Below are positions 3,131 to 63,140 of a stretch of 64,000 bases of DNA, one piece after another (position 1 is the first letter of the stretch; each line of letters opens with the position of its first letter). The notes under the pieces are model-generated. The model made no database searches. It was not told where the DNA came from and saw nothing but the letters and a program-made list of their open reading frames with translations. This stretch comes from a virus, in the IMG/VR virus record IMGVR_UViG_3300029092_000103; one strand, 5' to 3'. The position numbers and the translations under genes are program-made.

Positions 3131-3169
3131 GGAAATGGAAAGAGAAGCAAGAAGTGTAGGAGGAAAGCG

Positions 3170-34262: not shown

Positions 34263-34479
34263 AGAGCATACCTCCTTTGAGTACAATTTTTCAATTTAAG
34301 TATAGCTCTTTTTTCGGCTTATAGCAACGAAAGATTTGTAAATTTCTAAGTTGCAAGCCCACTTCCCAAAAAAAGTAACTCACGAGTTAGTAACTTACGA
34401 GTATATTATTTTACCGCTTTAGCCTGTCTGCCTCGTGCAGATGGGCTTTTTTCATGCCCACGAGGAGGTGGTTACCCGC

Positions 34480-37400
34480 ATGGCATCCAGAATCCAGGGC
34501 ATCGCCGTTGAAATCGGCGGCGATACCACAAAGCTCTCCAAAGCACTGGAAGGTGTAAACAAATCAATAAAGGGGACGCAGTCCGGACTGAAGGATGTCA
34601 ACAAACTCCTGAAGCTGGACCCCTCGAATACTGAACTGGTCGTCCAGAAGCAGAAGATGCTCAAGGATGCCATTGAAGCCACCAAGGAAAAGCTGGCAAC
34701 CTTAAAGACCGCTGCACAGCAGGCCAATGAACAGCTTGCCAATGGTGAAATCACCCAGCAACAGTACGATGCTCTCCAGCGTGAGATTGCTGAGACAGAA
34801 CAGAATCTGAAATCCCTGCAGGAGCAGGCGGCGACCACTAACGCGACCCTTGCCAAAATCGATGAGGCCGGCGAAAAATTACAGAACCTTGGCTCTTCGG
34901 TCGAAAATGTGGGTAAGAAGTTCCTTCCTGTGACCGCAGCTGTGACCGGCCTCGGCACAGCGGCAGTGAAAACAGCGGCTGACTTCGATGCTGAGATGAG
35001 CAAGGTTTCTGCTATTTCCGGTGCGACCGGGGCTGACTTTGACAAACTCCGTGCGAAAGCCCGTGAGATGGGCGCAAAGACCAAATTCTCCGCAACAGAA
35101 GCCGCCTCCGCGATGGAGTATATGGCGATGGCCGGTTGGCGCACCGAAGATATGCTTTCTGGTATTGAGGGCATTATGAACCTCGCGGCCGCTTCCGGTG
35201 AAGACCTCGCCACGACCTCGGATATCGTCACGGACGCCCTTACCGCTTTCGGCCTGTCGGCTTCAGATTCCGGTCATTTTGCGGATATCCTTGCGGCAGC
35301 TTCTTCCAACGCGAACACCAACGTCAGCATGATGGGCGAGACGTTCAAGTACTGTGCGCCTATCGCCGGCGCGTTGGGATTCTCGGCAGAGGATACCGCA
35401 GAAGCCATCGGCCTCATGGCAAACAGCGGTATCAAGGCTTCGCAGGCTGGTACTTCTCTGCGTTCCATTATGAACAACCTTGCCGGTGATGTGACCTTTG
35501 TCGGCAAGAACATCGGTGAGGTCACGATTGCTACCAGCAATGCAGACGGCAGTATGAGAAGCCTGAATGACATTCTTGCAGACTGCCGTGTGGCTTTTGC
35601 AGGATTGTCTGAATCCGAAAAGGCAGCCAATGCGGAAGCTCTGGTCGGCAAGAATGCAATGTCCGGCTTCCTCGCTCTGATGAATGCCGGCGAGGGGGAT
35701 ATCAATAAACTCCGTGGTGCAATCGAGGGATGCGATGGCGCATCCGAACGCATGGCAGAAACCATGCAGGACAATTTAAGTGGTCAGCTCACCATTCTGA
35801 AATCTCAGTTGGAGGAGCTGGCCATTTCTTTTGCCGATATCCTGATGCCGACCATCCGCAAAATCGTATCGGCGGTGCAGCAGTTTGTTGATAAGCTGAA
35901 CAGCATGGACGACAGCACCAGAGAGGTGATTATCCGAGTCGCGCTGCTGGCAGCTGCGATTGGTCCGCTGCTCATTGTTCTGGGTAAGACCATATCAACG
36001 GTCGGCACAGCGATGCGGGGATTCAGTTCTCTCGCAAAGGGTGTCCGGCTGCTCATTACCCACGTGGGTGGTGCCAGCGGTGCATTCGGCAAACTGGGCG
36101 CAGTGCTGGGCGGCCTATCCGGGCCGGTTGTGGCGGTGGTCGCGGTCATCGGTACACTGGTAGCAGCATTTCTCGATTTGTGGAATACAAACGAGGAATT
36201 CCGTACAGCAATCACTGGCATCTGGAACGATATCGTATCCAAAGTGAAAGCCTTCTGCGACCAGTTGACGCAGCGGATCAATGCACTCGGCTTTGATTTT
36301 AAGGATATCACTCAGGTTCTGCAATCAATCTGGAACGGATTCTGTCAGTTGCTGGCCCCACTGTTCGAAGGCGCATTTCAGAATATCTCTACTATCCTCG
36401 GCGTCGTGCTTGATTCGATGGTCGGTCTGCTCGATGTTTTCTCTAACATTTTCTCCGGAAATTGGCGTGGAGCGTGGGAGTCGGCAAAGAGTATTTTCTC
36501 TGGAATCTGGCAGGGCATCCGCTCGATTCTCTCTGTTACCCTTACGACTCTGCGGAATACGCTGGATGTTTTCCTTGGATTCTTCGGTACAAGCTGGCAG
36601 TCTGTCTGGAGCGGCATCCAGCAGTTCTTTGTGTCGATTTGGAGTGGAATCAGCGGATTTTTCTCGGATACGGCTTCGTCCATTTATTCGGTGGCAATCT
36701 CTGTGTTTACGGGGATTTCCGGATTCTTCACTTCGATTTTGACCTCGATCCAGACGACCTTCCGCACGACATGGACGGCGATTTCGCAGTCGGTTTCGTC
36801 TGCACTGACCGTGATCCACGACACTGTGGTGCGTGTATGGATGGCAATCTCGACTGTAATCTCGTCTGTGATGACTTCCATCTGTGAGACAATCCTGCAG
36901 GTTTGGTCCGGAATCTACACCACGATCCAGCCTCTGCTGGAGGCATTCCAATACCTGTTCAAGACGATTTGGCAGGCCATTCAGATTTTGGTCGGTGCTG
37001 CACTGACGGAAATTCACTCGAAAATCGTTTCGATTTGGAATTCTATCGTTGCATTTGTGACACCCCTACTTTCTGGCCTACAGTCGGTTTTCTCGGCAGC
37101 ATGGACAGACATCCAGCTGGCGATCTCTACGGTGCTGACGGCAATCCGGACTTCGGTGACATCTATCTGGAATGCAATCGTATCGTTCCTCTCGCCGCTG
37201 CTGACCGGAATCCAGACTCGGATGACCTCCGCATGGATGGCAATCCAGAATGTGATTTCGACTACTCTCTCGACAATCCATTCGGTGGTGTCGTCTATTT
37301 GGATGGCTATTAGCAGTAAAATTTCGTCTGTGGTTTCGGGCATCCGGTCCGTGATTTCTTCCGGCTGGAACTTCATGAAATCCACAGTTACGAATCTCAG

Positions 37401-47387: not shown

Positions 47388-48860
47388 ATGGGATATACCA
47401 ATAGTCCACTCGTTGTTTATACCAAACTCTCCCCGAACCATTCTGGGCAGAGAACACAGAGCATTGACCGCATCACACCGCATTGTGTGGTCGGTCAGCT
47501 TTCTGCAGAAAGCATCTGCGGCTGCTTCACCAGCACGAGTCGTCAGGCAAGCTGTAACTACGGCATCGGCACGGATGGTCGTGTATCGCTTTGTGTCGAG
47601 GAAAAGAATCGCAGCTGGTGTTCATCCAGTAATGTCAATGACCAGAGAGCAGTTACCATCGAATGTGCCAGTGATAAGAGTGAGCCGTATGCTATGAACA
47701 GTGCAGTGTACAATTCGCTCATCAAGCTCTGCATCGATATCTGCCAGCGTAACGGCAAGAAGAAGCTCTTGTGGCTGGGCGATAAGAATAAAACTCTCAA
47801 TTACGCGCCGGCAACAGATGAAATGGTGCTGACGGTTCACCGGTGGTTTGCCAACAAAAGCTGCCCCGGCGACTGGCTCTATAACCGTCTGGATGATCTG
47901 GCCGCAAAAGTAACGGCGGCACTGAGCGGTTCATCTACTTCATCCGGTATGCAGGCAACTTCGCTGAAGAATCTCACCGAGGCAGAAGCAGTTGCAAAGA
48001 TTGGTCCGCTGTTTACTGCGAACCAGAAAACCACGGGCATCCTTGCTTGCGTGTCGATGGCACAGTTCATTCTGGAGTCTGGATACGGCAAATCCGAGTT
48101 GGCGCAAAAGGCCAATAACTGCTTCGGCATGAAAACCTCTCTTTCTGGGAACAGCTGGCCGAATTCCGCATGGGACGGCAAGTCCGTCTACACGAAGAAA
48201 ACGCAGGAGCAGAATGCAGCCGGCTCGATGGTCACGATCACCGCCGACTTTCGCAAGTACGCTTGTGTCGAGGACTCCATTGCCGACCATGCGGCGTATC
48301 TGCTTGGTGCGATGAACGGCAGTAAGAAACGCTACGAGGGTCTGGAGGGCTGTACCGATTGCAAGAAAGCGGCACAGATCATCAAGGATGGCGGTTACGC
48401 CACCAGCCACACCTATGTGCAGAATTTCTGCAATATCATCGAGCGTTGGAATCTGACACAGTACAATGCCACCTCCGGCAGCAGCACCACCATTTCTGGC
48501 TGGTACCGTGTGCGTAAGAGCTGGCAGAATGCTGCGTCCCAGAAGGGCGCATTCCATGACCTCACCTATGCGAAGCAGTGTGCGGATAAGAATCCGGGCT
48601 ATTATGTCTTCGACCCGGATGGTAAGGCAACCTATCCTGTGACCCAAACCTCGTCTGTCCCGTATGCAGTCCGGGTGTCCATCAGCAATCTCAATATCCG
48701 CAAGGGTCCGGGCACGAACTATGCGAAGACCGGGCAGCACACCGGCAAGGGGGTGTTCACCATTATTGCGGAATTTGCCGGCGCGGGTTCCACGAAAGGC
48801 TGGGGCAAGCTGAAATCCGGTGCAGGCTGGATCAGTCTGGATTACGCCGCTCGTATCTAA
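47388..48860 (+). CDS. Endolysin: N-acetylmuramoyl-L-alanine amidase (Amidase_2/PGRP), glucosaminidase (GH73-like), and cell-wall-binding repeats
   Basis: N-terminal PGRP/amidase_2 region (HCVVGQ...ECASD). GH73-like ILACVSMAQFILESGYGKSELAQKANNCFGMK. Two C-terminal SH3b-like repeats. Confidence 0.85.
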   Translation: MGYTNSPLVVYTKLSPNHSGQRTQSIDRITPHCVVGQLSAESICGCFTSTSRQASCNYGIGTDGRVSLCVEEKNRSWCSSSNVNDQRAVTIECASDKSEPYAMNSAVYNSLIKLCIDICQRNGKKKLLWLGDKNKTLNYAPATDEMVLTVHRWFANKSCPGDWLYNRLDDLAAKVTAALSGSSTSSGMQATSLKNLTEAEAVAKIGPLFTANQKTTGILACVSMAQFILESGYGKSELAQKANNCFGMKTSLSGNSWPNSAWDGKSVYTKKTQEQNAAGSMVTITADFRKYACVEDSIADHAAYLLGAMNGSKKRYEGLEGCTDCKKAAQIIKDGGYATSHTYVQNFCNIIERWNLTQYNATSGSSTTISGWYRVRKSWQNAASQKGAFHDLTYAKQCADKNPGYYVFDPDGKATYPVTQTSSVPYAVRVSISNLNIRKGPGTNYAKTGQHTGKGVFTIIAEFAGAGSTKGWGKLKSGAGWISLDYAARI

Positions 48861-49029: not shown

Positions 49030-51420
49030 ATGAGTGCTGGTACGGATTTCCTTGCAAGTTTGCAGAAAAAGACTGTGAAAAGTACAGTCCAACAGAAACA
49101 GCAGAAGAGAGCGAATGCATCCGCTGTGGATGTCTCGGCTTTACTGGAAGCCGCTCTCAGGCAGAAGAAACCTACGGAAGCTGTGGCAGATGTTCGTCAA
49201 AGTGCGGATGTCGCCACAGCTTCTTTTTTACCACCGACTGACACGCATCAAGGCAAGTCTACTCAACAAAAGCCGAAAAGCGCGTCAGATAAAGCAGTAC
49301 TACAGAAGCAATCAACCTCAAAATCCAAAGACATCGTTGATGCCGGTATCACAGCCCTTATCCAGAAAGCTCTGGATGCCAAAAAGGTTATGGAGCAGCC
49401 GGATATTGCAGAAAGGCTGCAAAGTAGTATGGAGAGCGAGTTCACACAGCTTTTCGCTGCCGAGAATGAACCGCAGGAAAGCAAGTTTGTTTCGACTGCG
49501 ACATTCCGCACCACCAAAAAGAAGATTGGAAGCATCCGTGTGGCGGCTTATATCCGCGTGTCCACGGATATGAGCGACCAGGAGAACTCATACGAAACGC
49601 AGGAAAAGTATTTTAATCAGCTGATTCAAAGCAATCCGGAATGGAATGCAGTCGGTGTGTACTCCGATTACGGTATCTCCGGCACTTCCAAGGAAAAGAG
49701 AACTGGATTCCGCAGGCTGATGCGCCACTGTAAGGATGGCAAAATCGACCGCATTGTGTGCAAGTCCATTTCCCGATTTGCCCGAAATACGGCTGACTTT
49801 ATGACGGCACTGGATACCCTGCACGACTGCGGAGTGACGATTCTGTTCGAGAAAGAAAATCTGGATACGGCAGACCCGACCAGCGACTTCATCCTTACAA
49901 CGCTGGCCGCCATCGCACAGGAAGAAAGCCGCAGCATTTCCGGTAACATCCGACAGGGCAATAAGATGCGCTTTCCGAAAGGGGAAGTTCCCAACAAGAT
50001 TATGTACGGATACCGCTACAACGGGAAGATGGTTACTTCCGAGAGCGGATATGAGTATAAAGACATCGAGGTCGTGGAAGAAGAAGCCAAGGTCGTCCGG
50101 CGCATTTTCAACGAAGTCGTGGAAGGCAAAGCCTATACGGAAATCGCAAGGGGACTGAATCTGGATAAGATTCCGGCTCCGGAGTCAGATATGGCGAGGG
50201 CCAGAAAGCGGAATTCCAAGAAAGGACAGCTGAACAGTGATTTACAGGACGGCTGGACTGGAGGGAATATCACGAGAATCGTCCGTGCCGAGCGATACAT
50301 GGGAGCAGTTCTCATTCAGAAGGTGTTCACACCGGATTATCTGACCCATACGGTTCAGAAAAACAACGGTGAAGTTCCACAGTATTTTGTCCGGAACCAC
50401 CATCCGGCAATCATTGATGAGGATTTGTTTCAAAAAGCGCAGGAAGTCGTAAAGGCAAACAGTGAACTGTATAACAGGACAAGGTTCAAGAAGAAGCCGA
50501 GAGCATTTTCTCAGAGGCTCATCTGTGGGGAGTGTGGACGGTTCTACTCTGTGACAAATGGAAACGGAAGCAATCCCATTTGGAGATGCCCTACGAGCAG
50601 CCAGACGACTGGAAAGTGCATCTGCCATGCAGAGAAAGTATACGAGGAACAGATTGTTCGTGTATTCCGTAAGGCGATTCTGGAACGGTTCCGGCTGACC
50701 ATCAAGCCCATTCACGACAATGTGGCTGTGGCAGATATCATGAGCGGACGTTTCAAAGAGCAGTATGACAACTTCACACCGGAAGCGGATTCCTTTGTGA
50801 GCCAGATGCTTGCAAGACTGGAAAGCATTCAAAAGCTGGACTTCATGGAACGCGACCGTGCTTTTTATAAGAAGCAGATTGCCGCCGCCCACACCAGTGT
50901 GGAAAGCACCAATAAGAAGATTCGGCTTCTGAAAAGTCAGGTAGATGTGATGCATACTCGTCTGGAAGTCCTCGGAGATGAGATGATCAGTCCGGCTTCC
51001 ATTGAGGAAAAGAAAAAACTCATTGAGAAGCTGGAGCAGGATGTTCAAAAAGACACAGACACTGAGCAGAAGCTGACCGAACAGCTCGACTACATGGAAA
51101 ACTACTGGGAAGAGCTGGAGAGCGACTATGAACGCAGGGAAAAGGCAATCGAGTGGATGAAGAACCTCCCGGTGGGTCGGGATGGTACGGTGGCTTTCTT
51201 AAATGAAGTGACCGAAGAACACTGCAAGGCATTTATCCTTTCGATTACCATCTATTCACCGCTGAAGTTCACGGTTCACTGGTTTGATGATACCAAGACC
51301 GAGGTGCAGATGGATTCCAACATTGAAGATTACCGCAATACCGCAAGCTACTATGACGGGCATACGATGCGTGATGGCAGCCAGCGGAAAAAGTATGTAA
51401 GAAGAACCAGAAGAAAATAA
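49030..51420 (+). CDS. Large serine recombinase (integrase), with an N-terminal extension of about 155 aa
   Basis: Resolvase catalytic domain (RVAAYIRVSTDMSDQENSYETQ...ISGTS...SISRFARNT), then recombinase, Zn-ribbon (CGECGRF...WRC) and coiled-coil regions. Confidence 0.85.
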   Translation: MSAGTDFLASLQKKTVKSTVQQKQQKRANASAVDVSALLEAALRQKKPTEAVADVRQSADVATASFLPPTDTHQGKSTQQKPKSASDKAVLQKQSTSKSKDIVDAGITALIQKALDAKKVMEQPDIAERLQSSMESEFTQLFAAENEPQESKFVSTATFRTTKKKIGSIRVAAYIRVSTDMSDQENSYETQEKYFNQLIQSNPEWNAVGVYSDYGISGTSKEKRTGFRRLMRHCKDGKIDRIVCKSISRFARNTADFMTALDTLHDCGVTILFEKENLDTADPTSDFILTTLAAIAQEESRSISGNIRQGNKMRFPKGEVPNKIMYGYRYNGKMVTSESGYEYKDIEVVEEEAKVVRRIFNEVVEGKAYTEIARGLNLDKIPAPESDMARARKRNSKKGQLNSDLQDGWTGGNITRIVRAERYMGAVLIQKVFTPDYLTHTVQKNNGEVPQYFVRNHHPAIIDEDLFQKAQEVVKANSELYNRTRFKKKPRAFSQRLICGECGRFYSVTNGNGSNPIWRCPTSSQTTGKCICHAEKVYEEQIVRVFRKAILERFRLTIKPIHDNVAVADIMSGRFKEQYDNFTPEADSFVSQMLARLESIQKLDFMERDRAFYKKQIAAAHTSVESTNKKIRLLKSQVDVMHTRLEVLGDEMISPASIEEKKKLIEKLEQDVQKDTDTEQKLTEQLDYMENYWEELESDYERREKAIEWMKNLPVGRDGTVAFLNEVTEEHCKAFILSITIYSPLKFTVHWFDDTKTEVQMDSNIEDYRNTASYYDGHTMRDGSQRKKYVRRTRRK

Positions 51421-51455
51421 GAGCCAGTCATAAGGCTGGCAGAAAGGGGCAGATT

Positions 51456-53756
51456 ATGACAAGACAAAAAGTAGATGTGATTCCCGCCAGTGTACGTTCG
51501 GTACAGAACGGCGGTCAGCTCAAAAGCCAGACCAATATCCGAGTGGCAGCCTACTGCCGTGTCTCCACGGGAGATGAGAGCCAGCAGACTTCCTACACGA
51601 CCCAGAAAGCATTCTACAAAGACCTCATCACTCGGAAAACCGGCTGGATTTTTGCTGGCATCTATGCAGATGAAGCAAAGTCTGGTACGAACCGAGAGCA
51701 TCGTGAGGAATTTAACCGCATGATGAAGGACGCGATGGATGGCAAGCTGGACTACATTGTTACGAAGTCCATTTCCCGATTCGCACGAAATACCATCGAC
51801 TCCCTGACCTGTACCCGTGAGCTTCGACAGTTGAAGCCGCCCGTGGGTATCTACTTTGAAAAAGAAAATATCGACACGCTGGATGCCAAAGGCGAACTGA
51901 TTTTGACGATTCTTTCGGCTTTGGCACAGGATGAGAGCCGTTCCATTTCGGACAATATCCGCTGGAGCATCCAGAAGAAGTTTCAGGCTGGTGTTCCGCA
52001 CATCAATCTGAAGCGGATGCTGGGGTATGAGCTGGGGCCTAATAAGCAGTGGGTCATCGTGCCAGAGCAGGCAGAAATCATCCGGTACATTTTCGACCGC
52101 TATGTGAAAGGACAGACGGCGAATAAAATTGCACGGGAACTGAACCAGATGGAGAAGCTCACGGTCAACGGGAAGAAGTGGAGAGCAAGTTCCATTCTGA
52201 TCGTCCTGCGGAATGAAAAGTATGTGGGCGACATCGAGATGCAGAAGACCATCACCAAAGACTTCCTGACCCACCGTTCCAGCATCAACAAGGGCGAGGC
52301 ACCCCGTTACTATGTGAAAAACCATCATGTGGGCATCATCGACCGTGTAACTTGGGACAAGGTGCAGACCATGCTGTTCGAGAAGCCGAGGACGGACATG
52401 ACCAAAGGCCCCGGCAAGAAAAAGGTAAAGAGCATCAAAGGTTCTCCATTTGGAAACCTGCGCTGTGGTGCAATTTTGGAGAACGGACCGGATGCCGGAA
52501 AGCCCTGCGGTGAGGGATTCTTCCGTGTGACCTACACGGGAGTGGCAAACGGTTATACTGATGAGCGGAGCTTACAGGCGACCGGGGAGGATACCGGAGA
52601 GTATCTGGAAAAATACACCTATTCCTATCCAGTCTGGCGGTGTAAGAGAAAAGTTGGAGAGAGGGATGGTGAACCGCCGAAGAATGGTACACCCGACCAG
52701 AAAGCGTATTGCCGGAGCAAACTTGGACGCTTGTCGGATGAGGAACGCAAAGCCGCTGATGAGCGGTGTCCATCGGAAGTCTACCATGAATGTGCGCTGG
52801 AACAGAGCTTCATGGAACTGCTCTACAGCATGAAGCGTGATTATGAACAGCACGGAGACGCTTCCATGATCGTGACCATGTTCGATAACGCCTATGAGCA
52901 GGCTGTCCAACTGGCAAACAACAGCAGTATCTCGGTACAGAGGATGGCGACCGTAGAGAACCAGATTAAAGAGATGGAAGAACGCCTGCAGGATGCTATC
53001 AGCCATCAGGTGGCGGCTCTTCGGGAAGCTGCTCTGGAGCAGAGTGCGGAACTGAACGAAGCCCTTTCCAATGGTGAGATGACCATTGATGATATCGACA
53101 TGGACATCCGAAGCGGACTGACACCGGGTAGTATCGGAGTGAGCTTCTATGGGACGGAAACGGAGGAAGGCTCGGAAGCCCAGATTTATACGGAGCTTGT
53201 GAATGACCTGCAGGAACGCTTGCAAACACTCAGGCAGGAACGGCAGACTATTGAAGAAGAGCAGGGTGTTCTGGCCATCATGAAGAAGAACTTTGAATAC
53301 TTCCTCGCCTGCCTGAAAGAACTGCCGGATGCCAATGCAAGTGGGATGCCCCTGAAAGTCAACGGGCTGGATGTACAGGGAAGCCTGATGCGAGATGCCG
53401 AGGGAAAGCCAATTGATGGAAAGACCGCTGCCGTCCACAATGGAAAAATCAAGTTGACGCCTGAGCGGATTGCGGAAGCCCCCGATATGCTTCATTTTGA
53501 AAAAGGTATCTATTGTGCTTTCATTGAAAGTGGAGTATTGCAGGGAGATGTGGCGACCTACAAGACAAACTTCGGTGTGACACTGACTTCAAAGGGTAAC
53601 CGTAGAACACTCACCAGCTTCATGGGCTATAAGCGGAGTGACCTGAACGGCAATGTGGTCTACATTGATGCCCCTTACAAAGTGTACGGATTCAGCATTC
53701 AGTACCGCCGGTATCTGACAACCGCTGCAAAGCGTGAGAGGAAAGAAGCAGTATAA
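51456..53756 (+). CDS. Large serine recombinase (second copy)
   Basis: RVAAYCRVSTGDESQQTSYTTQ...KSGTN...SISRFARNT, recombinase domain, coiled-coil. Confidence 0.85.
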   Translation: MTRQKVDVIPASVRSVQNGGQLKSQTNIRVAAYCRVSTGDESQQTSYTTQKAFYKDLITRKTGWIFAGIYADEAKSGTNREHREEFNRMMKDAMDGKLDYIVTKSISRFARNTIDSLTCTRELRQLKPPVGIYFEKENIDTLDAKGELILTILSALAQDESRSISDNIRWSIQKKFQAGVPHINLKRMLGYELGPNKQWVIVPEQAEIIRYIFDRYVKGQTANKIARELNQMEKLTVNGKKWRASSILIVLRNEKYVGDIEMQKTITKDFLTHRSSINKGEAPRYYVKNHHVGIIDRVTWDKVQTMLFEKPRTDMTKGPGKKKVKSIKGSPFGNLRCGAILENGPDAGKPCGEGFFRVTYTGVANGYTDERSLQATGEDTGEYLEKYTYSYPVWRCKRKVGERDGEPPKNGTPDQKAYCRSKLGRLSDEERKAADERCPSEVYHECALEQSFMELLYSMKRDYEQHGDASMIVTMFDNAYEQAVQLANNSSISVQRMATVENQIKEMEERLQDAISHQVAALREAALEQSAELNEALSNGEMTIDDIDMDIRSGLTPGSIGVSFYGTETEEGSEAQIYTELVNDLQERLQTLRQERQTIEEEQGVLAIMKKNFEYFLACLKELPDANASGMPLKVNGLDVQGSLMRDAEGKPIDGKTAAVHNGKIKLTPERIAEAPDMLHFEKGIYCAFIESGVLQGDVATYKTNFGVTLTSKGNRRTLTSFMGYKRSDLNGNVVYIDAPYKVYGFSIQYRRYLTTAAKRERKEAV

Positions 53757-53922
53757 GGATGAGATATGACCCTGCTGGGTGTGGCTTTTGTGGCTGCATC
53801 TGGCAGGGCCTTTTTTGTTTGTGGGAGATTTTATTCTTTTTTACATGTGGGGATTGCTATGTGCAGAGATCTGTTATATGTTGTGGATGACGAGGAATAC
53901 ACATAGCAGGAGAGATGACGAT

Positions 53923-54321
53923 ATGAAAAAATTATCGTGGTTATCGGTAGAGGATTATGGAACAACACCATTGGAAGTGATAATCGTGAGTGCAATGAAA
54001 GGGTATCTGGGAGAAATGCCAGAGAGTAAAGCATTGAAAAAGATCGAGGAAGTCTTTGACCCAAAGGTCATCCGGCTGTTCGGTGACGATGGCGCACCAA
54101 TGCCCGTACAAAGCACTGTTGACGGTGCAAAATTCGCTGCATTCATCGACGAGGCAGTAGCTGATGTGGTGAAACGAATGGAATCGGACATGAGCGACAT
54201 CGGGCAGATTGCACTGGAGGCTTTGCGAGATATAGACGGGAAGGTGATCGTTGAAACGATGAGTCCTGAGTTTGTGAGCTTCCTAGGGGATGTGTATAGA
54301 AGTTTGAAATTTGACAAATAA
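53923..54321 (+). CDS. Hypothetical protein (132 aa)
   Basis: ATG 53923 follows GGAGAGA. The ORF track's upstream extension is hydrophobic and of low complexity. Confidence 0.4.
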   Translation: MKKLSWLSVEDYGTTPLEVIIVSAMKGYLGEMPESKALKKIEEVFDPKVIRLFGDDGAPMPVQSTVDGAKFAAFIDEAVADVVKRMESDMSDIGQIALEALRDIDGKVIVETMSPEFVSFLGDVYRSLKFDK

Positions 54322-54418
54322 AAACGGAAAACCCGTTGATATTTTCTGGCGATAGGGGTATAATAAGATTGCAAGAAAATAAAAACGATAAATCCGTTTT
54401 TAGAAGGGAGAATGATAC

Positions 54419-55570
54419 ATGAAAATACTCCGTATCACCGCACAGGGACTTCCACTGTTTAAAGAAAACCTGGATATCTGTTTTTACACACAGCAGCGCG
54501 TAAGTGAGGATGATAAGTGTAGTCTATATAATTTGATTGATAATTATTATCTTCACACTACCAATGCGTTTATTGGAATCAATGCGTCTGGTAAGACCTC
54601 TGTGTTAAAGGTTATCAATTTGGCTCTGAACATTGTAAAGAATGAGCCCATTAATCATGTAGAGGCAAAAACTATTCTTGGTGGAGCAAGAGAAGCTACG
54701 ATTTGCACTTATTTTTATGATAATCGTAAATATGTCTGCTGCCTAGAAACTGTAATTACGGCAAAAAAAGCAAAGGCAGGAGATTATGTGTATTCGATCC
54801 TGTCCGAAAGACTGTGGGAAAAATCAATTGTCAGTATCAAGTCGAAGAAGTATTTGACGGATTTCACCGGAATGGAGCCTGTGGCATCGCGTAATAGCGA
54901 TGAAGCATATCTTTCAGATGATGTCAGCTTTATCATTGCACATAATAAAAAAGCAAATGATACGGTGGAAGTGTTTAGCTTACTTTCTTACACGAATGTG
55001 AATGTGCTTCCCTTTACTGAGGATATTCCATTGGAAGTGATTGCTTTTCTGGACCCAACCATTGAAAAATTGTGCTTCGAGCAAACAGAGGGAAAGACAT
55101 TTATCCATTTGAAATTCCGAAATGAAGATGAAATTGTTTTAAACAATGCAGTGGACCTTGAGCAGTATCTGTCTTCCGGTACAATCAAAGGTATTATTAC
55201 ATTCTCAATGGTGAAGGAGGTACTTCAATCTGGTGGATACTTGCTGGTAGATGAAATTGAAAACCATTTTAATAAGGAAATTGTAACAACACTGATTCGT
55301 TTCTTTATGGATGGCCGACTTAACAAAAAAGGTGGAACACTGATTTTTACAACACATTATCCAGAGTTGTTGGATGAATATGACCGCAATGATGGAATTT
55401 GTATCGTAAGAAACCGTAATGGCATCACAGTAGAAAACCTGAGCTATATATTGAAACGTAATGATATTAAAAAAAGCGATGCATATCAGAGTGGATTTCT
55501 GGAAGGAACGACCCCTGCGTATGAGGCCTATATGCGCTTGAAGAAGAACCTGGCTGCTTCAATTCATTAA
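54419..55570 (+). CDS. AAA_21/ABC-like ATPase (AbiLi-like, OLD-family ATPase-like)
   Basis: Walker A GINASGKTSV. Walker B/D-loop LLVDEIENHFN. H-loop TTHYPELL. The sequence is AT-rich relative to the prophage. Confidence 0.75.
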   Translation: MKILRITAQGLPLFKENLDICFYTQQRVSEDDKCSLYNLIDNYYLHTTNAFIGINASGKTSVLKVINLALNIVKNEPINHVEAKTILGGAREATICTYFYDNRKYVCCLETVITAKKAKAGDYVYSILSERLWEKSIVSIKSKKYLTDFTGMEPVASRNSDEAYLSDDVSFIIAHNKKANDTVEVFSLLSYTNVNVLPFTEDIPLEVIAFLDPTIEKLCFEQTEGKTFIHLKFRNEDEIVLNNAVDLEQYLSSGTIKGIITFSMVKEVLQSGGYLLVDEIENHFNKEIVTTLIRFFMDGRLNKKGGTLIFTTHYPELLDEYDRNDGICIVRNRNGITVENLSYILKRNDIKKSDAYQSGFLEGTTPAYEAYMRLKKNLAASIH

Positions 55571-55582
55571 GGAGGCGGCAGA

Positions 55583-56104
55583 ATGGAATTGGCAAAATAT
55601 AAGGCGTGTATCTGCGAGGGTTCGGCGGAGGCTGCGATTATCGATATACTGGTCGATAATGACCTTTTGATCTTTACCTGAGAAGAAATGCTCAATGAAG
55701 AAGTTATCCGATGCAGGAACGCAAAGAAATTTGAGGAACGTTACTTACGTAAGGAATTTGCAGATCAGGTTTCTGTCATACGGATTCTAGATTCGCGCAG
55801 GGAAGAATTTCGACTCAGCAAGGCATACGAAAATAAGATTGATGTTATTAATGTCATTACAGCTCCCGAAATAGAAATGTTGATTATCCATAATGAGGGA
55901 GAGTATGAACATTTTAAGCGTTCTGGGAAGAAGCCGAGTGAGTTTTGTAAAGTGAATCTCCGTATGCATAATGTAAAGTCGTATGAATTCGTGAAAGACT
56001 ATTTTAGTGATCCACAAACACTGGTGGGGGCGATTAAAGAATATCGTAGAACCGCAAATATCCCAAATGGAGAATACTGCTTGTCTGACTTGCTAAAGCA
56101 ATGA
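55583..56104 (+). pseudogene. RloB/DUF4276-like (Toprim-like, AbiLii-like) gene interrupted by an in-frame TGA at 55679-55681
   Basis: N-terminal ...KACICEGSAEAAIID matches the RloB/DUF4276 CEGxxE signature. The 32-aa ORF (55583-55681) and the 138-aa ORF (55688-56104) are in the same frame, separated only by TGA. GGAGG lies 7 nt before ATG 55583. Confidence 0.55.
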
Positions 56105-56325
56105 GAAACGGCAGTCATGTACAAGGCCACAGGAGATATAAGAAAAGAAGCGCATAATTGAAAATAATTGGCCCACTGGCGCACTGTGTAGAATCCTACA
56201 TGGTACGTTGGTGGGTTTCTTTTTTTGCCTTACCCGCATGAACCACAGACAGCACCTCGGTGTGATCCGAAGTGCAGCTGTGGCTTATGCGGGCTTTTTT
56301 GTTATATGGTCAACGAGTTACAAAG

Positions 56326-56667
56326 TCAGATGCCTAACCCGTATAAAATCGCTTTCATCTCCTTTACCATCCGGGTGAGGATTTCCTGTTCAGTTGCATT
56401 GCAGTCCAAAAGCAGTCGGTGAATCTCCGTATCAGCTGTAGAGGTGGAATGCGTCAGGCTGTCTACGAGAAGGTCGTCTGCCGATACATTCAAGATATTT
56501 GCAATCTGCACGAGAGATTCCAAACTGGGCTTACTCTTTCCGAGTTCAATGTTGCTGATGTGCTTATAGCCAACCTCACACCTGAAAGCGAGTTCTTCCT
56601 GTGATAAATTTCCTTTGTTCCTAAAATTGGCGATGCGCTGTCCAAGCGCAGTATAGTCAATTGCCAT
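56326..56667 (-). CDS. XRE-family helix-turn-helix (HTH) transcriptional regulator (putative repressor)
   Basis: HTH LSQEELAFRCEVGYKHISNIELGKSKPSLESLVQIANILNV. AAGGAGG RBS before ATG 56667 on the minus strand. Confidence 0.75.
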   Translation of the reverse strand: MAIDYTALGQRIANFRNKGNLSQEELAFRCEVGYKHISNIELGKSKPSLESLVQIANILNVSADDLLVDSLTHSTSTADTEIHRLLLDCNATEQEILTRMVKEMKAILYGLGI

Positions 56668-56802
56668 ACAGTCCTCCTTATGGTTTACCCGCATAAGGCT
56701 GATATGATTATCTCGCAGGAGAAAATGTATGGCAACAGAGTGAGGACACTCTAAGACCGCAGAGCCACTTACCCCTATCAGTAGTGTGGTCTTAGCCTGT
56801 TA

Positions 56803-56852
56803 TTCCACCTGATAGGTGGAATTTTCGACTTCATTCCATCTGACAGGTGGAA
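56803..56852. promoter_or_regulatory. Two 19-bp palindromic operator-like sites (TTCCACCTGATAGGTGGAA and TTCCATCTGACAGGTGGAA) in the divergent region between the XRE gene and the AAA_25 gene
   Basis: Read from the sequence at 56803-56821 and 56834-56852. Confidence 0.55.
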
Positions 56853-56918
56853 GTCAAAGCACCGCACATATTCTATAATATAAATGTAGTAAAAGACTGC
56901 AATTGGAAAGGAAAGACA

Positions 56919-57896
56919 ATGGCAAGTAAAGAGCAAGTGGGGATTCTTACATTATATAGTGATGTACAGGCGACTTCTGTTCGCTGGCTGTGGTATCCGT
57001 TCATTGCAGTTGGAAAGATCACATTGCTTCAAGGCGACCCCGGTGACGGAAAGTCCACAATGATGATGAATCTGATTGCCGGTTTGTCCAATGGTGGGAG
57101 CCTCCCGGATGGTAAGCCGGTCGGGATGCCACAGAGGGTTATTTATCAGTGTTCGGAAGATGGCGTTTCGGATACCATCAAGCCTCGGCTGGAAAAGTGC
57201 GGAGCCGATTGCAGGAATGTGGCGTTCATAAATGAAGAAACCTACAGTGGGCTGACGCTGGATGATGAACGTATCCGGCAGGCTATTATAGAATTCCGGC
57301 CGAGGCTGGTAGTCATCGACCCGATACAGGCGTATCTCGGAAGTGACTCTGACCTCCAGATTGCAGGCAGAGCCAGAAAGTTGATGCAGCGTCTTGGAAT
57401 GTGGGCATCCGTATATGATTGTGCCATTGTGCTGATCGGTCACCTCAACAAGAAAGAGGGAACAAAAGGTCTGTATCGGAGTCTCGGCAGTATCGATGTG
57501 GTGGCGGCTGCCCGGAGTGTCCTGCAGGTGGAGAGAGATCCAGAGAACGCCGATATCCGCATCGTCCGGCAGATAAAGAACAGTCTGGCTCCATCCGATG
57601 GTGAAATCCGGTTTTCGATAACAGCAGAGCAGGGCTTCAAATGGCTGGAATGTGAAGTTGCACCAAATCCGGCAGCAGAGCCGGAAGCACCAAACTTTGA
57701 ATCGAAAGCCGAGAAAGCGGCCTATCTGATTAAGAAACTGCTTTCAGAGGGTGATATGAGATCCAGAGAAATCTACATAAGGCTGAGCGATGAAGGTATC
57801 AGCCGCAGGACAGCAGAAAACATAAAAAAGGAACTCGGCATCCGAAGTTACCGGAGGATGCGTCAGTGGTATTGGAGCATCCAGCCGGAAGATTGA
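56919..57896 (+). CDS. AAA_25 / RecA-DnaB-like P-loop ATPase (RepA-like)
   Basis: Walker A LLQGDPGDGKST, Walker B LVVIDPIQAY, and GHLNK. Confidence 0.7.
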   Translation: MASKEQVGILTLYSDVQATSVRWLWYPFIAVGKITLLQGDPGDGKSTMMMNLIAGLSNGGSLPDGKPVGMPQRVIYQCSEDGVSDTIKPRLEKCGADCRNVAFINEETYSGLTLDDERIRQAIIEFRPRLVVIDPIQAYLGSDSDLQIAGRARKLMQRLGMWASVYDCAIVLIGHLNKKEGTKGLYRSLGSIDVVAAARSVLQVERDPENADIRIVRQIKNSLAPSDGEIRFSITAEQGFKWLECEVAPNPAAEPEAPNFESKAEKAAYLIKKLLSEGDMRSREIYIRLSDEGISRRTAENIKKELGIRSYRRMRQWYWSIQPED

Positions 57897-57906
57897 GAGG
57901 AAACAA

Positions 57907-59763
57907 ATGACAAAAAGTGAACGGCAAGAGCGCAAACAAAAAATTAGAGAACGTTATAAAGGCACGGATACATCCAGAATTAAAGTAATTCCTGCGAAAT
58001 CTTCAGAGAACTTGGAAACAAGCAACACCATTCGTCGTGTTGCTGCTTATGTACGTGTTTCAACTGATAATGATGAACAGACTTCATCCTATGAGCTTCA
58101 GAAGAATTATTATACTAAGTATATCAAGGCGCAACCAGGTTGGGAGTTCGCTGGAATTTATGCTGACGAGGGCATCAGTGGTACTTCTCTTGAGCACCGA
58201 AAGGGAATGCAGAAGCTAATTGAAGATTGTAAAGCTGGGAAAATTGACCTTATACTTACAAAATCGATTTCTCGATTCGCTAGAAACATTGTAGATTGCC
58301 TTTCAATAGTTGGTATGTTGAAGGATCTTGAGCCACCCGTAGGTGTAAAGTTTGAAACAGATAATATTTCAACGTTAGACATCAATGGACGGATGCTCTT
58401 GTCCATTGTGGCTTCTTTGGCAGAGGAGGAATCTCATAATAAATCTCTTCTGATGAATTGGTCTCTTGAACAACGTTATAAAGACGGAATGTTTCTTATT
58501 CCAGAACTTTTGGGGTACGATCTGGATGAAAATGGTAACCTTGTGGTTAATCCAGAAGAAGCACAGACTGTAAAGGTGATTTATTATTTGTATTTGAACG
58601 GATTCTCGCTTACGGAAATTGCTGAACTGTTGACCGATTATAGAAGGAAAACAAAATTAGGTAATACAGAATGGAATCCAAGTTCTTTGGCTGCTGTGAT
58701 CGCCAATGAAAGACATTGTGGAGATCTTTTAGCAAGAAAAACTTACACACCCAATTATTTGACTCATAAATCGAAGAAAATCAAAAATAACGAACGTGCA
58801 CAATATTGGAATTTCGACCATCATGAGGCAATTGTATCCAGAGAGGTCTATAATGCAGCAAATCATCTGCGAGCATCCCGGAGCTATGCAAAGCGAAAAC
58901 GTCCTCTGCCAGTTTTGAGTGTGGTCGATGACGGCATTCTTCGTGGATATGTACCTTTCGACAAAGACTGGACAGGATTTTCAGCAGAGGAATATCGAGA
59001 GGCTTCTGAAAGTGTAATGCTGGAGAAAGAAACTGACACGGTAGAAGTCATGAATCGTTTGGATTTGACCGGCTATGAAGTAGTCCGTGCACAGTATTTC
59101 TCGACTTTGCGGAATCCGGCCATGACGATTTCAAATGGAAGGTTGCGGTTTAATACAGCTTGTCTGAAAAAATTTGAAAATGTTGAGTATGTAGAACTGC
59201 TTCTGAACTCGGTTGACCGCTGTGTTGCTATCCGCCCCTGCGAAAAGAGCAATCCGAATGCAATTCATTGGGGGCGATTGAAAGAGGGACGGTGGTGTGC
59301 CAGTACACTTGTTTGCCGTGGTCTAGCAAAAGCACTTTTTGACATCATGGAATGGGAAGATGGCTTAAAATACCGTTTTCGTGGACAGTTTGTGGAGCAG
59401 GGCGATAATAAGTTGATGCTCTTTGAACTGGACGAACCGGAAATGGTCAAAGTCGAAGAAATCGTTCTTCCGCCCAAGGGAGAAGATGCTGAAGGCGAAA
59501 CAGTTAAGCAGACGATTTACATTCTTCCGCCGGAATGGGCAGGAACCTTTGGACAACCAATCACAAGCATTGCGCAGATTAGCCTCTTACAACAGAAACA
59601 TTATGCCGGAAACTGGGATGTACTTAGACCAGCAGCAGAAATAGAAGAAATGAATACATTTACGGTAGAAAATTTAAATGCGTTGCTTCACGAAGCGGAA
59701 GAAATAATGGAAGGATGGACTGATACAGATGGAGGAGAACAAAACGAGTGTTCCGATGAATGA
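57907..59763 (+). CDS. Large serine recombinase (third copy, AT-richer)
   Basis: RRVAAYVRVSTDNDEQTSSYELQ...ISGTS...SISRFARNI, recombinase domain, and a distinctive C-terminal domain (RLRFNTACLKKF...VAIRPC). Confidence 0.85.
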   Translation: MTKSERQERKQKIRERYKGTDTSRIKVIPAKSSENLETSNTIRRVAAYVRVSTDNDEQTSSYELQKNYYTKYIKAQPGWEFAGIYADEGISGTSLEHRKGMQKLIEDCKAGKIDLILTKSISRFARNIVDCLSIVGMLKDLEPPVGVKFETDNISTLDINGRMLLSIVASLAEEESHNKSLLMNWSLEQRYKDGMFLIPELLGYDLDENGNLVVNPEEAQTVKVIYYLYLNGFSLTEIAELLTDYRRKTKLGNTEWNPSSLAAVIANERHCGDLLARKTYTPNYLTHKSKKIKNNERAQYWNFDHHEAIVSREVYNAANHLRASRSYAKRKRPLPVLSVVDDGILRGYVPFDKDWTGFSAEEYREASESVMLEKETDTVEVMNRLDLTGYEVVRAQYFSTLRNPAMTISNGRLRFNTACLKKFENVEYVELLLNSVDRCVAIRPCEKSNPNAIHWGRLKEGRWCASTLVCRGLAKALFDIMEWEDGLKYRFRGQFVEQGDNKLMLFELDEPEMVKVEEIVLPPKGEDAEGETVKQTIYILPPEWAGTFGQPITSIAQISLLQQKHYAGNWDVLRPAAEIEEMNTFTVENLNALLHEAEEIMEGWTDTDGGEQNECSDE

Positions 59764-61574: not shown

Positions 61575-61811
61575 TTGTGCAGTAGGTTGTTAATACTGAT
61601 AAGAGAGTTAAAGAAAAAATTGAAAATTCCTCATTTATATCCCAATGGATCTCTATGTCTATACTATCCGGATTATAACGAATGGAATGCAGATGACTTA
61701 TGGGCTGATTCTATAATTCCATGGACCTGCCTTTGGCTGTATTTTTTTGAATTATGGATAGCAACTGGGGAGTGGTTGGGTGGAGGAATTCATCCAGGAA
61801 ATAACAATTGA
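61575..61811 (+). CDS. Hypothetical small protein (78 aa), AT-rich
   Basis: ORF only. Confidence 0.3.
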   Translation: MCSRLLILIRELKKKLKIPHLYPNGSLCLYYPDYNEWNADDLWADSIIPWTCLWLYFFELWIATGEWLGGGIHPGNNN

Positions 61812-61959
61812 ATGTTGCAACGAATCTAGGCAAACAAAAATACCCGAACAAAAGAAAGCAAGCCGTGTGGACAAACTGAACTCCAGGAGTTCACACGGTA
61901 ATTTTTGAAGGTTGCTATATAGTTTGTAACTGAAATAAAAGTAATGGAGCGTAAGAAAA

Positions 61960-62343
61960 ATGAATTTATCAAAAATACATCATATTGCAATTATTGTATC
62001 TGACTACGAAGCCGCAAAGAATTTTTATGTGAACAAGCTGGGATTCTCTGTCATCAGAGAAAACTACCGCCCGGAGCGTAAGGACTGGAAGCTGGATCTT
62101 CGTATTAATGAGCACACAGAGCTGGAGATTTTCGCTGAGGAAAATCCGCCGAAGCGTGTGAACTGCCCGGAAGCCTGTGGGCTGCGTCACCTTGCGTTCT
62201 GCGTTGATAGCGTGGAACAGACAGTGAATGAGCTGGCAGAGGTCGGGATTGAATGTGAGCCGATCCGGGTTGACGATTACACCGGCAAGAAGATGACTTT
62301 CTTCCATGACCCGGACGGACTGCCGCTGGAATTGCACGAATAA
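61960..62343 (+). CDS. VOC-family (glyoxalase/bleomycin-resistance/dioxygenase) protein
   Basis: IHHIAIIVSDYEAAKNFYVNKLGF...HLAFCVDS...FFHDPDGLPLEL is the VOC fold signature. Confidence 0.8.
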   Translation: MNLSKIHHIAIIVSDYEAAKNFYVNKLGFSVIRENYRPERKDWKLDLRINEHTELEIFAEENPPKRVNCPEACGLRHLAFCVDSVEQTVNELAEVGIECEPIRVDDYTGKKMTFFHDPDGLPLELHE

Positions 62344-62345
62344 TT

Positions 62346-63140
62346 ATGGGAGAGAAAAGAGCGTATAAAGCCAGAAAGCCTGGCGGTGGCAGGAAAAAGC
62401 TGAAGCCAGAATATGATGCAGAGAAAAATCTGAAAGAGCAGATGAATGCTGCTGTATCCCTCTATAAAAACAACTCTCTCCAAGCCATTGCAAATGAACT
62501 GACTCTCAACCCTATCAAGGTTCGCAAGCTGCTCATCACAGCTGGTGTGTATGAGTCGGATATAGCGGAGATGGTACGGCGTACTTTTTATAGGTATAGA
62601 AAAATACAGAACTATAAAGAAGCAATCCTCTCCACCGCATCAGAACTCAAGCTGTCCAAAGCCTCGGTCACTTCGTATCTGCCGTATGAAAAGGGCGTGT
62701 ATTTCCCAAGCACAACCTCAACAGAGAAGATCAGTGTGGGTGCAGAGCGGCAGAGGAGATACCGGGCAACGAAGAAGCTGCGAGCAGCGCCGACAGAGGA
62801 ACATCTGTGGGAAGTGGTTCTGGCATATCAAAAAGTGCGTTTTAAAACCTATTCCGGCTTGCCATTCTCTTATGAAATACGAAAAGGCAGAAGCGGCGAA
62901 TACACAAAAGAGCTCTGGATCGACAGGCGAGAGAGCAGCAAGAGTCTGGCGTGGAGCTCGGTGTTGCTGGCGCTGGGCAATGTAAAAGAGGTCGGAGCAG
63001 TGGTTGACCGTCCGAAAGCGTTGGGTGATATTCGTGGAGTGACCTACATCTACGGGATGTTCTACCGGTTTGGGCTGATTGATGTGCCGGACGCGGTAAA
63101 GGAGAAGATGAATAAGCGCGGGTGTATTTCCAAGGGCTGA
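62346..63140 (+). CDS. Hypothetical protein (264 aa) with a basic N-terminus
   Basis: ORF immediately after the VOC gene. Confidence 0.5.
   Translation: MGEKRAYKARKPGGGRKKLKPEYDAEKNLKEQMNAAVSLYKNNSLQAIANELTLNPIKVRKLLITAGVYESDIAEMVRRTFYRYRKIQNYKEAILSTASELKLSKASVTSYLPYEKGVYFPSTTSTEKISVGAERQRRYRATKKLRAAPTEEHLWEVVLAYQKVRFKTYSGLPFSYEIRKGRSGEYTKELWIDRRESSKSLAWSSVLLALGNVKEVGAVVDRPKALGDIRGVTYIYGMFYRFGLIDVPDAVKEKMNKRGCISKG

Follow-up and report, generated by a model that had tools for sequence, protein, structure and literature searches.

Pairs made up of an ABC ATPase together with a TOPRIM protein form a recognised group of systems, in which AbiL and PARIS have been placed together (PMC13064643, PMC11464382). 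In PARIS the effector is sequestered, and upon its release cleaves tRNA (PMC11464382), and toxins of the TOPRIM_OLD type were found to be neutralised by AAA ATPases in validated toxin-antitoxin assays (PMC10440598). The window analysed here, a 64,000-nt stretch from IMG/VR virus record IMGVR_UViG_3300029092_000103, carries on its (+) strand, at 54419-56104, an ATPase gene followed by an interrupted partner ORF, an arrangement described in an earlier note on this sequence and confirmed here. We consider it likely that this mobile module is a member of the ABC-ATPase plus Toprim-nuclease class that comprises AbiL, RloAB, PARIS and OLD, systems of anti-phage or toxin-antitoxin-like character, and that this particular copy is a recent null allele. 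Its overall architecture and likely mechanism are already known and not new, and the system is of an ordinary type, seen here in what is probably a null state.

The likeness to AbiL from Lactococcus lactis, in which the AbiLi ATPase is paired with AbiLii, a Toprim of RloB type, and to RloAB from Campylobacter lies in the two co-oriented, nearly abutting genes with the AAA_21/ABC ATPase in first position, in the partner, which fills the RloB slot and whose CEGxxE, D and P-x-x-E motifs follow one another as in RloB, and in the association with mobile elements. The window partner is, however, shorter (172 aa, as opposed to about 180-235 aa), fails the Pfam RloB and PADLOC AbiLii models, and has D-S-x-x-E instead of FDxD and PEIE instead of PCFELWLLLHF; its ATPase is compact (383 aa), and, in contrast to AbiL, the hosts of the module are gut Clostridia rather than lactococci. 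PARIS likewise combines an ABC ATPase with a separate Toprim effector and is often encoded by phages or satellites. The window ATPase matches AriA models (PADLOC AriA, E=8.7e-16), although only over the C-terminal part of the profile, and in structure the partner comes closest to PH0156, reportedly the first-ranking HHpred match of a lactococcal DUF4435 AriB. Nevertheless, the partner yields no DUF4435 HMM match and, at about 20 kDa, is considerably smaller than AriB, which includes a dimerisation region and amounts to about 35 kDa. Members of the OLD family (P2 Old, Class 2 OLD and Gabija GajA) also possess an ABC ATPase along with a Toprim module followed by a helical region, but there both modules are fused in one polypeptide, while in the window they occupy separate genes, and HMM similarity of the partner family to OLD is undetectable save for E of about 0.1 in two of 61 members.

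We regard PARIS as the likely mechanistic template. By analogy with it, and with the validated AAA/TOPRIM_OLD toxin-antitoxin pairs, an oligomer of the ATPase would keep the small Toprim effector inactive and would sense an infection cue, and ATP-dependent release would then free the effector to cut nucleic acid (tRNA or DNA), aborting infection by a competing phage. Nuclease activity of the partner, a role of the ATPase in sensing and sequestration, a defence phenotype and the loss of function in this copy are inferred, whereas the anatomy of the genes, the relations of their families, the strict synteny, the mobility of the cassette and the existence and frequency of the stop are shown.

A mobile ATPase-partner module

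The first gene (54419..55570, +) is intact and codes for an ATPase of 383 aa. It matches the PADLOC AbiLi model (PDLC02335) with E=5.9e-30 over residues 3-364, covering positions 50-284 of the 326-position profile, and Pfam AAA_21 with E=4e-14 and 53.8 bits, the cut-off being 27. The Walker A, Walker B and H-loop motifs claimed for this protein could all be located on the (+) strand by motif reading, as GINASGKTS (aa 53-61; 54575-54601), YLLVDE (aa 274-279; 55238-55255) and FTTHYPE (aa 310-316; 55346-55366), respectively, and were accompanied by an ABC signature, LSSGT (aa 251-255; 55169-55183). Profiles and motifs therefore agree with the AbiL-like nature proposed for it and identify an AbiLi-type AAA_21/ABC ATPase. 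An identical protein is on record in 328 contigs. The gap between the ATPase and effector genes is 12 nt, and a GGAGG ribosome-binding site, read directly from the sequence (55571..55575, +), lies 7 nt 5′ of the effector ATG, as would befit an AbiL-type pair of adjacent, co-oriented genes in one operon.

This gene order is widespread: in all but one of 80 species genomes (79 of 80), a member of the partner family comes directly after the ATPase gene, about 12-20 nt separating the two, and the same order is seen on Ligilactobacillus and Bifidobacterium megaplasmids. In more distant ATPase homologues located on plasmids, the next gene is annotated as RloB in seven of seven cases. When the 80 species-representative loci were compared with the window by blastn, homology to about 75 unrelated genomes was found to start near 54316 and to stop near 56097; in most loci the start falls at 54308-54318 and the end at 56091-56097, the sequences outside these limits being unrelated. 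The cassette so delimited (54316..56097, +), consisting of a putative promoter, the ATPase gene and the gene for the Toprim-like effector, has a GC content of about 0.38 and coincides with a dip in the GC profile, from 0.45-0.54 in the flanks to 0.37-0.42 over positions 54200-56200, approximately. Both the AT-richness of the segment and its status as a separately acquired cargo, as suggested in the earlier note, are upheld by these data, the latter by the sharp edges of homology. The two-gene unit is a horizontally mobile module of 1.8 kb, which in the window is cargo of a Faecalibacterium prausnitzii prophage and lies in its recombinase region. In another locus, L016, the neighbours of the cassette, as read by eye, are ImmA-like, HTH, MazF-like and tyrosine-integrase ORFs. 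A megablast search of the region against a phage collection returned a single irrelevant match of 59 nt.

A compact Toprim-like partner

The effector gene (55583..56104, +) comprises 173 codons, including the interruption discussed below, and was delineated from the ORF, the family alignment, an AF2 model and hhalign comparisons. Clustering of the partner family gives 2125 clusters at an identity of 90% and 901 at 50%. Most of its members come from gut Clostridia, and others from Lactobacillaceae, Bifidobacterium plasmids and spirochaete MAGs; some members bear the NCBI label “N-6 DNA methylase”. We found no experimental test of any family member in the literature searched. The window protein had no match in Pfam, PADLOC, NCBIfam or PHROG models, and Pfam RloB, DUF4276, DUF4435 and OLD-like_TOPRIM, as well as PADLOC AbiLii and AriB, did not recognise the partner at threshold. 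In searches with 61 family members, AbiLii was not among the PADLOC families matched, RloB was not among the matches listed (25 of 40 Pfam families), and DUF4276 (PF14103) was hit by one of the 61 at E=0.029, under the gathering cut-off. The Ligilactobacillus homologue showed a weak similarity to the RloB model (E=0.011), and precomputed Pfam domains were present in none of its 37 relatives. The module thus departs from AbiL in that its partner is not one recognised by the AbiLii or RloB (PF13707) models, and, since all four model collections miss it, defence-system finders would show at most an orphan AbiLi-like ATPase at this locus.

The family alignment reveals three motifs on the (+) strand, CEGSAE (55613-55630), RILDSRREE (55781-55807) and TAPEIEM (55859-55879), and, among 61 sequences which are 36-58% identical to the query, the residues E12, G13, E16, D70, T93, E98 and K132 are invariant. 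The first motif provides the E-G of a Toprim domain, with an invariant Glu ending strand 1, and its E12, G13 and E16 align with CEGExTE of RloB. Of the metal-binding DxD, in contrast, the family keeps only the first Asp: the D motif reads (R/I)LDSxxE, with Ser next to D70, so that the D-x-D-type motif of RloB is replaced by D-S-x-x-E, in which the acidic residue at +4 from D70 is largely conserved, as judged by eye.

The AF2 model of the partner (pLDDT 97) predicts a Toprim alpha/beta fold with a trailing helical region, and is nearest to PH0156 and to the Toprim regions of OLD nucleases. In Foldseek searches, the best PDB match was 6nk8, and in BFVD an RloB-like phage protein ranked second, with the highest probability among the matches listed; OLD and RloB-like proteins headed the results, but no match in either database was significant. 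The longest structural alignments, spanning 127-136 residues, were with the C-terminal region of a Burkholderia OLD protein, GajA and PH0156. When the two protein sequences and the profile of the partner family were searched against PDB chains, nothing meaningful emerged (matches to MEF2 were dismissed as weak, with E>0.1), and a search of PDB with the RloB profile found nothing. With hhalign in local mode and larger alignments, the partner family could be aligned with 127 RloB sequences over 158 columns, bringing the CEG, D and PEIE/PCFELW motifs into collinear register with a score of 24.8 (P=0.005) and a reported probability of only 5-7%. This score exceeds those of all 30 column-shuffled controls (maximum 19.6), of the reversed alignment (12.2) and of an unrelated profile (12.9); when the RloB side was represented by one or by seven sequences, the CEG motif alone was aligned.

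On the basis of the modelled fold and the hhalign alignment, the partner is a Toprim effector of RloB/OLD-like type, compact and highly diverged, and is not a member of Pfam RloB or DUF4276. The earlier note had read CEGxxE as a signature of RloB/DUF4276 proteins: the motif does correspond to CEGExTE of RloB, but membership in either model does not hold, and profile comparison supports a remote link to RloB. It could be argued that the partner is no nuclease at all, but a small protein of flavodoxin-like or receiver-like type that would serve the ATPase as adaptor or regulator, its Toprim likeness being that of a generic alpha/beta protein; this would accommodate the non-significance of every Foldseek match, the failure of all HMMs and the loss of the canonical DxD. 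We find it highly improbable, as the longest structural alignments are with OLD-family nucleases and PH0156 (although the tie of the latter to DUF4435/AriB comes solely from a reported HHpred match), the invariant acidic residues occupy Toprim motif positions collinear with those of RloB, and the gene sits in the RloB slot behind homologous ATPases. As a minimal Toprim effector of RloB/OLD type, the family enlarges the catalogue of ABC-ATPase/Toprim systems of the human gut, and its size of about 20 kDa makes it a compact effector for mechanistic work.

The in-frame TGA allele

An in-frame TGA (55679..55681, +) divides the partner ORF, exactly as claimed previously, into same-frame pieces of 32 aa (55583..55681) and 138 aa (55688..56104). 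Comparison with intact sister loci shows that it results from an A>T change in an AGA codon (Arg33), which reads AGA in L002, L003, L004, L007 and L098-L102. TGA is found at codon 33 in L001, L005, L006 and L008, which represent independent metagenome assemblies from different studies. The intact partner is on record in 543 contigs, as compared with 232 for the 32-aa product and 264 for the 138-aa product, and the TGA allele is shared by about a third of the sampled copies of this prophage, persisting at roughly 30% within one near-identical sublineage.

The TGA is a genuine nonsense (Arg33>stop) allele, which was one of three options left by the earlier note, alongside sequencing error and readthrough. 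A sequencing or assembly error, or decoding of the TGA under genetic code 4 or 25 or as selenocysteine, would have in its favour the in-frame position and nothing more, and can be considered refuted, an error being excluded and recoding very unlikely: the same base recurs in assemblies made independently in different studies, as well as in over 230 contigs, TGA terminates 13 of the 29 long ORFs in the window, the effector gene included, a scan of the whole window found no tRNA genes, an Rfam scan of 53600-57000 found no element, and the codon in the intact allele specifies Arg rather than Cys, Trp or Gly, so that TGA acts here as an ordinary stop. Phase variation was rejected as well, as the site has no repeat tract.

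The stop leaves strand 1 and helix 1, with the invariant Glu12, Gly13 and Glu16, on the 32-aa side, and the rest of the catalytic domain, with Asp70, Glu98 and Lys132, on the far side. Because it parts these two groups of residues, the window copy is most likely a recent null allele, that is, one in which the AbiL/PARIS-like system would have lost its function. The possibility that homologues of this ORF are routinely degraded, which would have meant a dead system, is refuted by the comparison with intact homologues, in which the partner was intact in 76 of 79 loci; the partner family is alive, and it is probably only the window copy that is null.

That the stop allele is maintained at roughly 30% in a prophage sampled across the globe could reflect selection instead of neutral decay, and read-through of the TGA, or re-initiation at an in-frame ATG (Met36; 55688..55690, +) located 6 nt past it, could provide residual activity. 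The allele would then be attenuated or split, either by read-through or by reassembly of the 32-aa product with a re-initiated 138-aa fragment, and would be selected for a lower, less toxic dose. In agreement with this, the stop allele is common, ORF2 has acquired no further mutations, the ATPase is still identical and intact, and a locus in a Faecalibacterium MAG (L058) harbours a separate 138-aa remnant that begins at the same ATG and differs by five non-synonymous and four synonymous changes. We nevertheless assign it a low probability. Over a 13-kb region no locus falls below 99.8% identity, with the TGA loci nearest to the window, so that the absence of further decay shows only that the mutation is recent; the internal ATG is preceded by GAGAAGAA only, at a spacing of 2 nt, and has no good Shine-Dalgarno sequence; the central strand with Glu12 and Glu16 resides in the 32-aa piece, leaving the 138-aa piece alone without the catalytic Glu; there is no suppressor tRNA in the window, where TGA is a regular stop; and all five loci from two further collections have AGA. 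A still less probable version is that Arg33>TGA is a selected state with a split or low-dose effector that avoids autoimmunity, or that the free 138-aa piece is functional in itself, for example as an ATPase-binding decoy, which would fit the stand-alone remnant in L058, where the homology breakpoint lies no more than 1-2 nt from the position of the stop.

One may also ask whether the pair serves mainly as a toxin-antitoxin addiction module stabilising its mobile elements, rather than as an anti-phage system, in which case the nonsense mutation would disarm the toxin. AAA ATPases do neutralise TOPRIM_OLD toxins (PMC10440598), the cassette is always carried by mobile elements, be they prophage, integrase-bearing elements or megaplasmids, and, across the 79 other species genomes, nonsense mutations affect the partner three times, as against once for the ATPase, a protein of double its length. 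This excess in the partner does not reach significance (P=0.11), and was left unused as evidence. The characterised relatives AbiL, PARIS, OLD and Gabija are all defence systems, toxin-antitoxin and defence functions are mutually compatible, and an ABC ATPase of 383 aa would be elaborate for a mere antitoxin; addiction as the main role therefore appears unlikely. The AGA and TGA alleles, found in a prophage of at least 99.8% identity, constitute a ready-made isogenic comparison in Faecalibacterium, which could be used to assess the cost of the system to lysogens and the protection that it gives.

Putative promoter, likely terminator and flanking hairpins

A consensus scan placed a putative sigma-70-like promoter, TTGATA-17-TATAAT, with 11 of 12 matching positions, at 54336..54364 (+), within the conserved cassette as bounded by blastn; a small hairpin (54323-54337) comes before it. 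At the other end, folding and sequence point to a GC-rich hairpin (56172-56215) followed by TTTCTTTTTTT, with the T-run at 56216-56226, as the likely intrinsic terminator for the operon that the two genes form (56172..56226, +), which sits beyond the end of the conserved cassette. Further downstream, a long hairpin with arms at 56233-56248 and 56278-56293 is followed by CTTTTTT (56233..56300, +), and the hairpin region folds far better than its shuffled versions (z=-5.3). This hairpin had been described as bidirectional, at about 56225-56290; its presence is confirmed, but its bidirectional character only in part, since on the minus strand it is followed by an A-rich rather than a T-rich stretch. 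The terminator hairpin at 56172-56215, which did not figure in the earlier note, is the more canonical of the two and lies just 5′ of the long one.

A two-gene cassette with a polymorphic stop codon

The ORF list and reading of the sequence place the 383-aa ATPase at 54419-55570 (+ strand), with the full ABC-type set of motifs (Walker A GINASGKTS, signature LSSGT, Walker B YLLVDE and H-loop FTTHYPE). The partner ORF (55583-56104, +) starts 12 nt past the ATPase stop, with a GGAGG site in between; it opens with MELAKYKACICEGSAEAAIIDILVDNDLLIFT, meets TGA at 55679-55681 and resumes in frame, ending at 56104, and mechanical ORF calling splits it into 32-aa and 138-aa pieces. The ORF list and the sequence thus bear out the layout proposed in the earlier note, i.e. 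two ORFs, the second split by an in-frame TGA. A sigma-70-like promoter matching the consensus at 11 of 12 positions lies at 54336-54364, and downstream of the pair are two hairpins, one at 56172-56215, followed by TTTCTTTTTTT, and a longer one, already pointed out in the earlier note, with arms at 56233-56248 and 56278-56293, followed by CTTTTTT; this region folds with z=-5.3 relative to shuffles. GC content is 0.37-0.42 at ~54200-56200 versus 0.45-0.54 in both flanks.

At the TGA, an A>T change turns Arg33 into a stop; this nonsense polymorphism is real, has a frequency of ~30% in the largest collection and represents a fairly common allele. Eight near-identical loci were fetched, each sharing at least 99.8% identity with the window across as much as 13 kb: four (L001, L005, L006 and L008) have TGA as in the window, and four (L002, L003, L004 and L007) have AGA at the same codon, which is the sole difference within the gene. 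The identical ATPase protein is recorded from hundreds of contigs, and exact look-up found the intact 173-aa partner in 543 contigs, the 138-aa piece in 264 and the 32-aa piece in 232. Sequencing error can therefore be rejected, as the same TGA recurs in several near-identical loci and hundreds of contigs. Both the 32-aa piece and the ATPase also have database entries from the virome contig Siphoviridae sp. ctLmu1, and the annotation of Faecalibacterium prausnitzii includes a close relative of 173 aa. Scanning two further collections for the pattern yielded five more loci, all with AGA. Loci with TGA are 0-5 bases away from the window sequence, against 7-19 for those with AGA, so that the stop identifies a single sublineage within a highly uniform prophage. 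Recoding was rejected as well: TGA is the normal stop here, closing 13 of the 29 long ORFs of the window (partner gene included), no tRNA genes were found across the window, and no Rfam elements were found in the cassette region.

Identity of the ATPase and its partner

The ATPase matches Pfam AAA_21 above threshold, and its best PADLOC match is AbiLi (E=5.9e-30), ahead of AriA (E=8.7e-16) and numerous further ABC ATPases of defence systems. The partner has no match in Pfam, PADLOC, NCBIfam or PHROGs, and no precomputed Pfam domain is present in any of the relatives examined. Its relatives number 2125 at 90% and 901 at 50% clustering and are nearly all 168-190 aa long. Across 61 aligned members that share 36-58% identity with the query, E12, G13, E16, D70, T93, E98 and K132 are invariant, and P95, E96, I97, P118 and S119 nearly so. 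The AlphaFold2 model built from this alignment (pLDDT 97, pTM 0.91) predicts an alpha/beta N-terminal part and a helical C-terminal part. A Foldseek search with it placed 6nk8 at the top of the PDB hits and, in BFVD, gave an RloB-like phage protein second rank and the highest probability listed, neither hit being significant. PH0156, the best structural neighbour of the model, was reported as the top HHpred match of a lactococcal AriB/DUF4435 protein (PMC11381338). Similar scores were reached by receiver-type and designed Rossmann folds, but over only ~80-93 residues.

The earlier note had assigned the partner to RloB/DUF4276. In all seven distant plasmid ATPase homologues inspected the next gene is annotated as RloB, two of these genes being confirmed against Pfam RloB (E=5e-31 and 1e-35), so that the partner sits in the RloB slot. 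The RloB alignment has the motifs CEGExTE, a D-x-D type whose first Asp never varies, and S-x-PCFE-x-WLLLHF, to which CEGxAE, (R/I)LDSxxE and T-x-PEIE-x-L-x-II correspond in the partner family; the second Asp of the Toprim DxD is replaced in the partner. Profile-profile comparison by hhalign of 140 partner-family members with 127 RloB sequences aligned the three motifs collinearly over 158 columns (score 24.8, P=0.005), while 30 column-shuffled RloB alignments scored 10.1-19.6, the reversed RloB alignment 12.2 and an unrelated profile 12.9. HMM signals were weak: RloB at E=0.011 in a Ligilactobacillus homologue, DUF4276 at E=0.029 in one of 61 family members, and OLD-like_TOPRIM at E=0.11 in two of the 61. 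We read the partner as truly related to RloB/OLD Toprim domains, though at a great distance: kinship with RloB stands, on the profile comparison and gene position, and formal membership of RloB or DUF4276 does not, on the HMMs. Two homologues of the 172-aa effector, on Ligilactobacillus salivarius plasmid pBNS11-360kb (L091 5169-5711, WP_095759350.1) and in Limosilactobacillus mucosae (P0437), are named “N-6 DNA methylase” by NCBI; they are far too small and none of the searches run revealed a methylase signature, and the name therefore looks like a propagated annotation error.

AbiL has been grouped with PARIS, OLD and Gabija as systems that pair an ABC ATPase with a Toprim protein (PMC13064643; PMC11464382). 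In PARIS, the AriA hexamer sequesters AriB and frees it upon sensing a phage protein, whereupon AriB cuts tRNA-Lys (PMC11464382), and in toxin-antitoxin assays TOPRIM_OLD toxins are neutralised by AAA ATPases (PMC10440598). By analogy, the intact cassette most likely works as these pairs do: the ATPase would be both sensor and antitoxin, and the 20-kDa Toprim protein the nuclease set free, with abortive infection of a superinfecting phage as the outcome. The earlier description of an AbiL-like pair was largely right as to its probable mode of action, with a partner outside Pfam RloB and DUF4276. The ATPase-partner system is an unannotated new form of a kind that is well known.

Consequences of the stop allele

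The stop after codon 32 parts strand 1 and helix 1 (Glu12, Gly13 and Glu16) from Asp70, Glu98 and Lys132, leaving the active site incomplete in both fragments, and the window copy of the partner is therefore most likely a null allele. An in-frame ATG is located 6 nt past the TGA, and re-initiation there could yield the 138-aa fragment; we consider it improbable that the TGA allele keeps residual function. It has gained no secondary damage which, given at least 99.8% identity among all loci, shows only that the stop is recent. Routine degradation of homologues, which the earlier note had taken as the mark of a dead system, was not seen: independent partner stops occur in only 3 of 79 other species genomes (codons 43, 62 and 156), and partner homologues are not generally decaying. 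The ATPase has a stop in one case among the same 79, and the asymmetry is not significant (P=0.11).

Cassette mobility and prophage setting

In 79 of the 80 species-representative genomes carrying the partner, the ATPase is directly upstream, and the same order is found on Ligilactobacillus and Bifidobacterium megaplasmids. Nucleotide comparison shows that homology to the window begins at 54308-54318 and stops at 56091-56097 in most of these loci, with unrelated flanks, indicating that the mobile unit includes the promoter along with the genes and excludes the terminator hairpins. A cassette ~80% identical to this one is found across genomes of many assigned genera, among them Gemmiger, Dorea, Intestinimonas, Bariatricus and Alitiscatomonas (L014-L034). 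Around the Alitiscatomonas aceti copy, within L016 1-10516, lie ORFs read by eye as a Y-family polymerase, two tyrosine integrases, an HTH protein and proteins resembling ImmA and MazF, suggesting that the ~80%-identical cassette is cargo of a broad-host-range integrative element.

In the window the cassette lies within a prophage, which has a 1678-aa ORF of tape-measure length (34435-39471, assigned by length only), a likely endolysin gene (47388-48860), so called from Amidase_2 and Glucosaminidase domains in near-identical loci, and three large serine recombinase genes (49030-51420, 51456-53756 and 57907-59763). Upstream of the cassette is a 132-aa ORF (53923-54321) with no Pfam or PHROG match, and an AAA_25 (RepA/DnaB-like) ATPase gene (56847-57896) precedes the third recombinase gene; it lies downstream of an HTH repressor-like gene (56326-56694), on the opposite strand. 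The sharp homology limits, unrelated flanks and prophage setting support the proposal of separately acquired defence cargo.

In the otherwise identical L006 prophage copy (ERZ28617941), a deletion fuses the first two serine recombinase genes (window 50804 to 53094), another lies within the third (58251 to 58816), and a 251-bp segment is inverted (61733-61983), which suggests recombinase-associated rearrangements at that prophage end. In L005 (ERZ27242118), identity stops at locus position 10313 (window 58731), inside the third recombinase gene, and genes past the breakpoint have Phage_integrase/Integrase_DNA, Tn916-Xis, HTH_16 and weak Sigma70_r4 domains; it looks as though a Tn916-like element had inserted into the recombinase gene.

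A Faecalibacterium MAG (L058, CAKSXE010000003.1) has only a stand-alone 138-aa C-terminal effector remnant; the 5 kb fetched upstream of it contains no ATPase. Its positions 5008-5793 match window 55680-56465 at 95% nucleotide identity, starting 1-2 nt from the TGA position, and the remnant has five non-synonymous and four synonymous differences from the window. Positions 2041-3291 match window 61862-63115, in a differing order, and a 123-aa ORF downstream of the remnant is related to the one of 132 aa that precedes the cassette.
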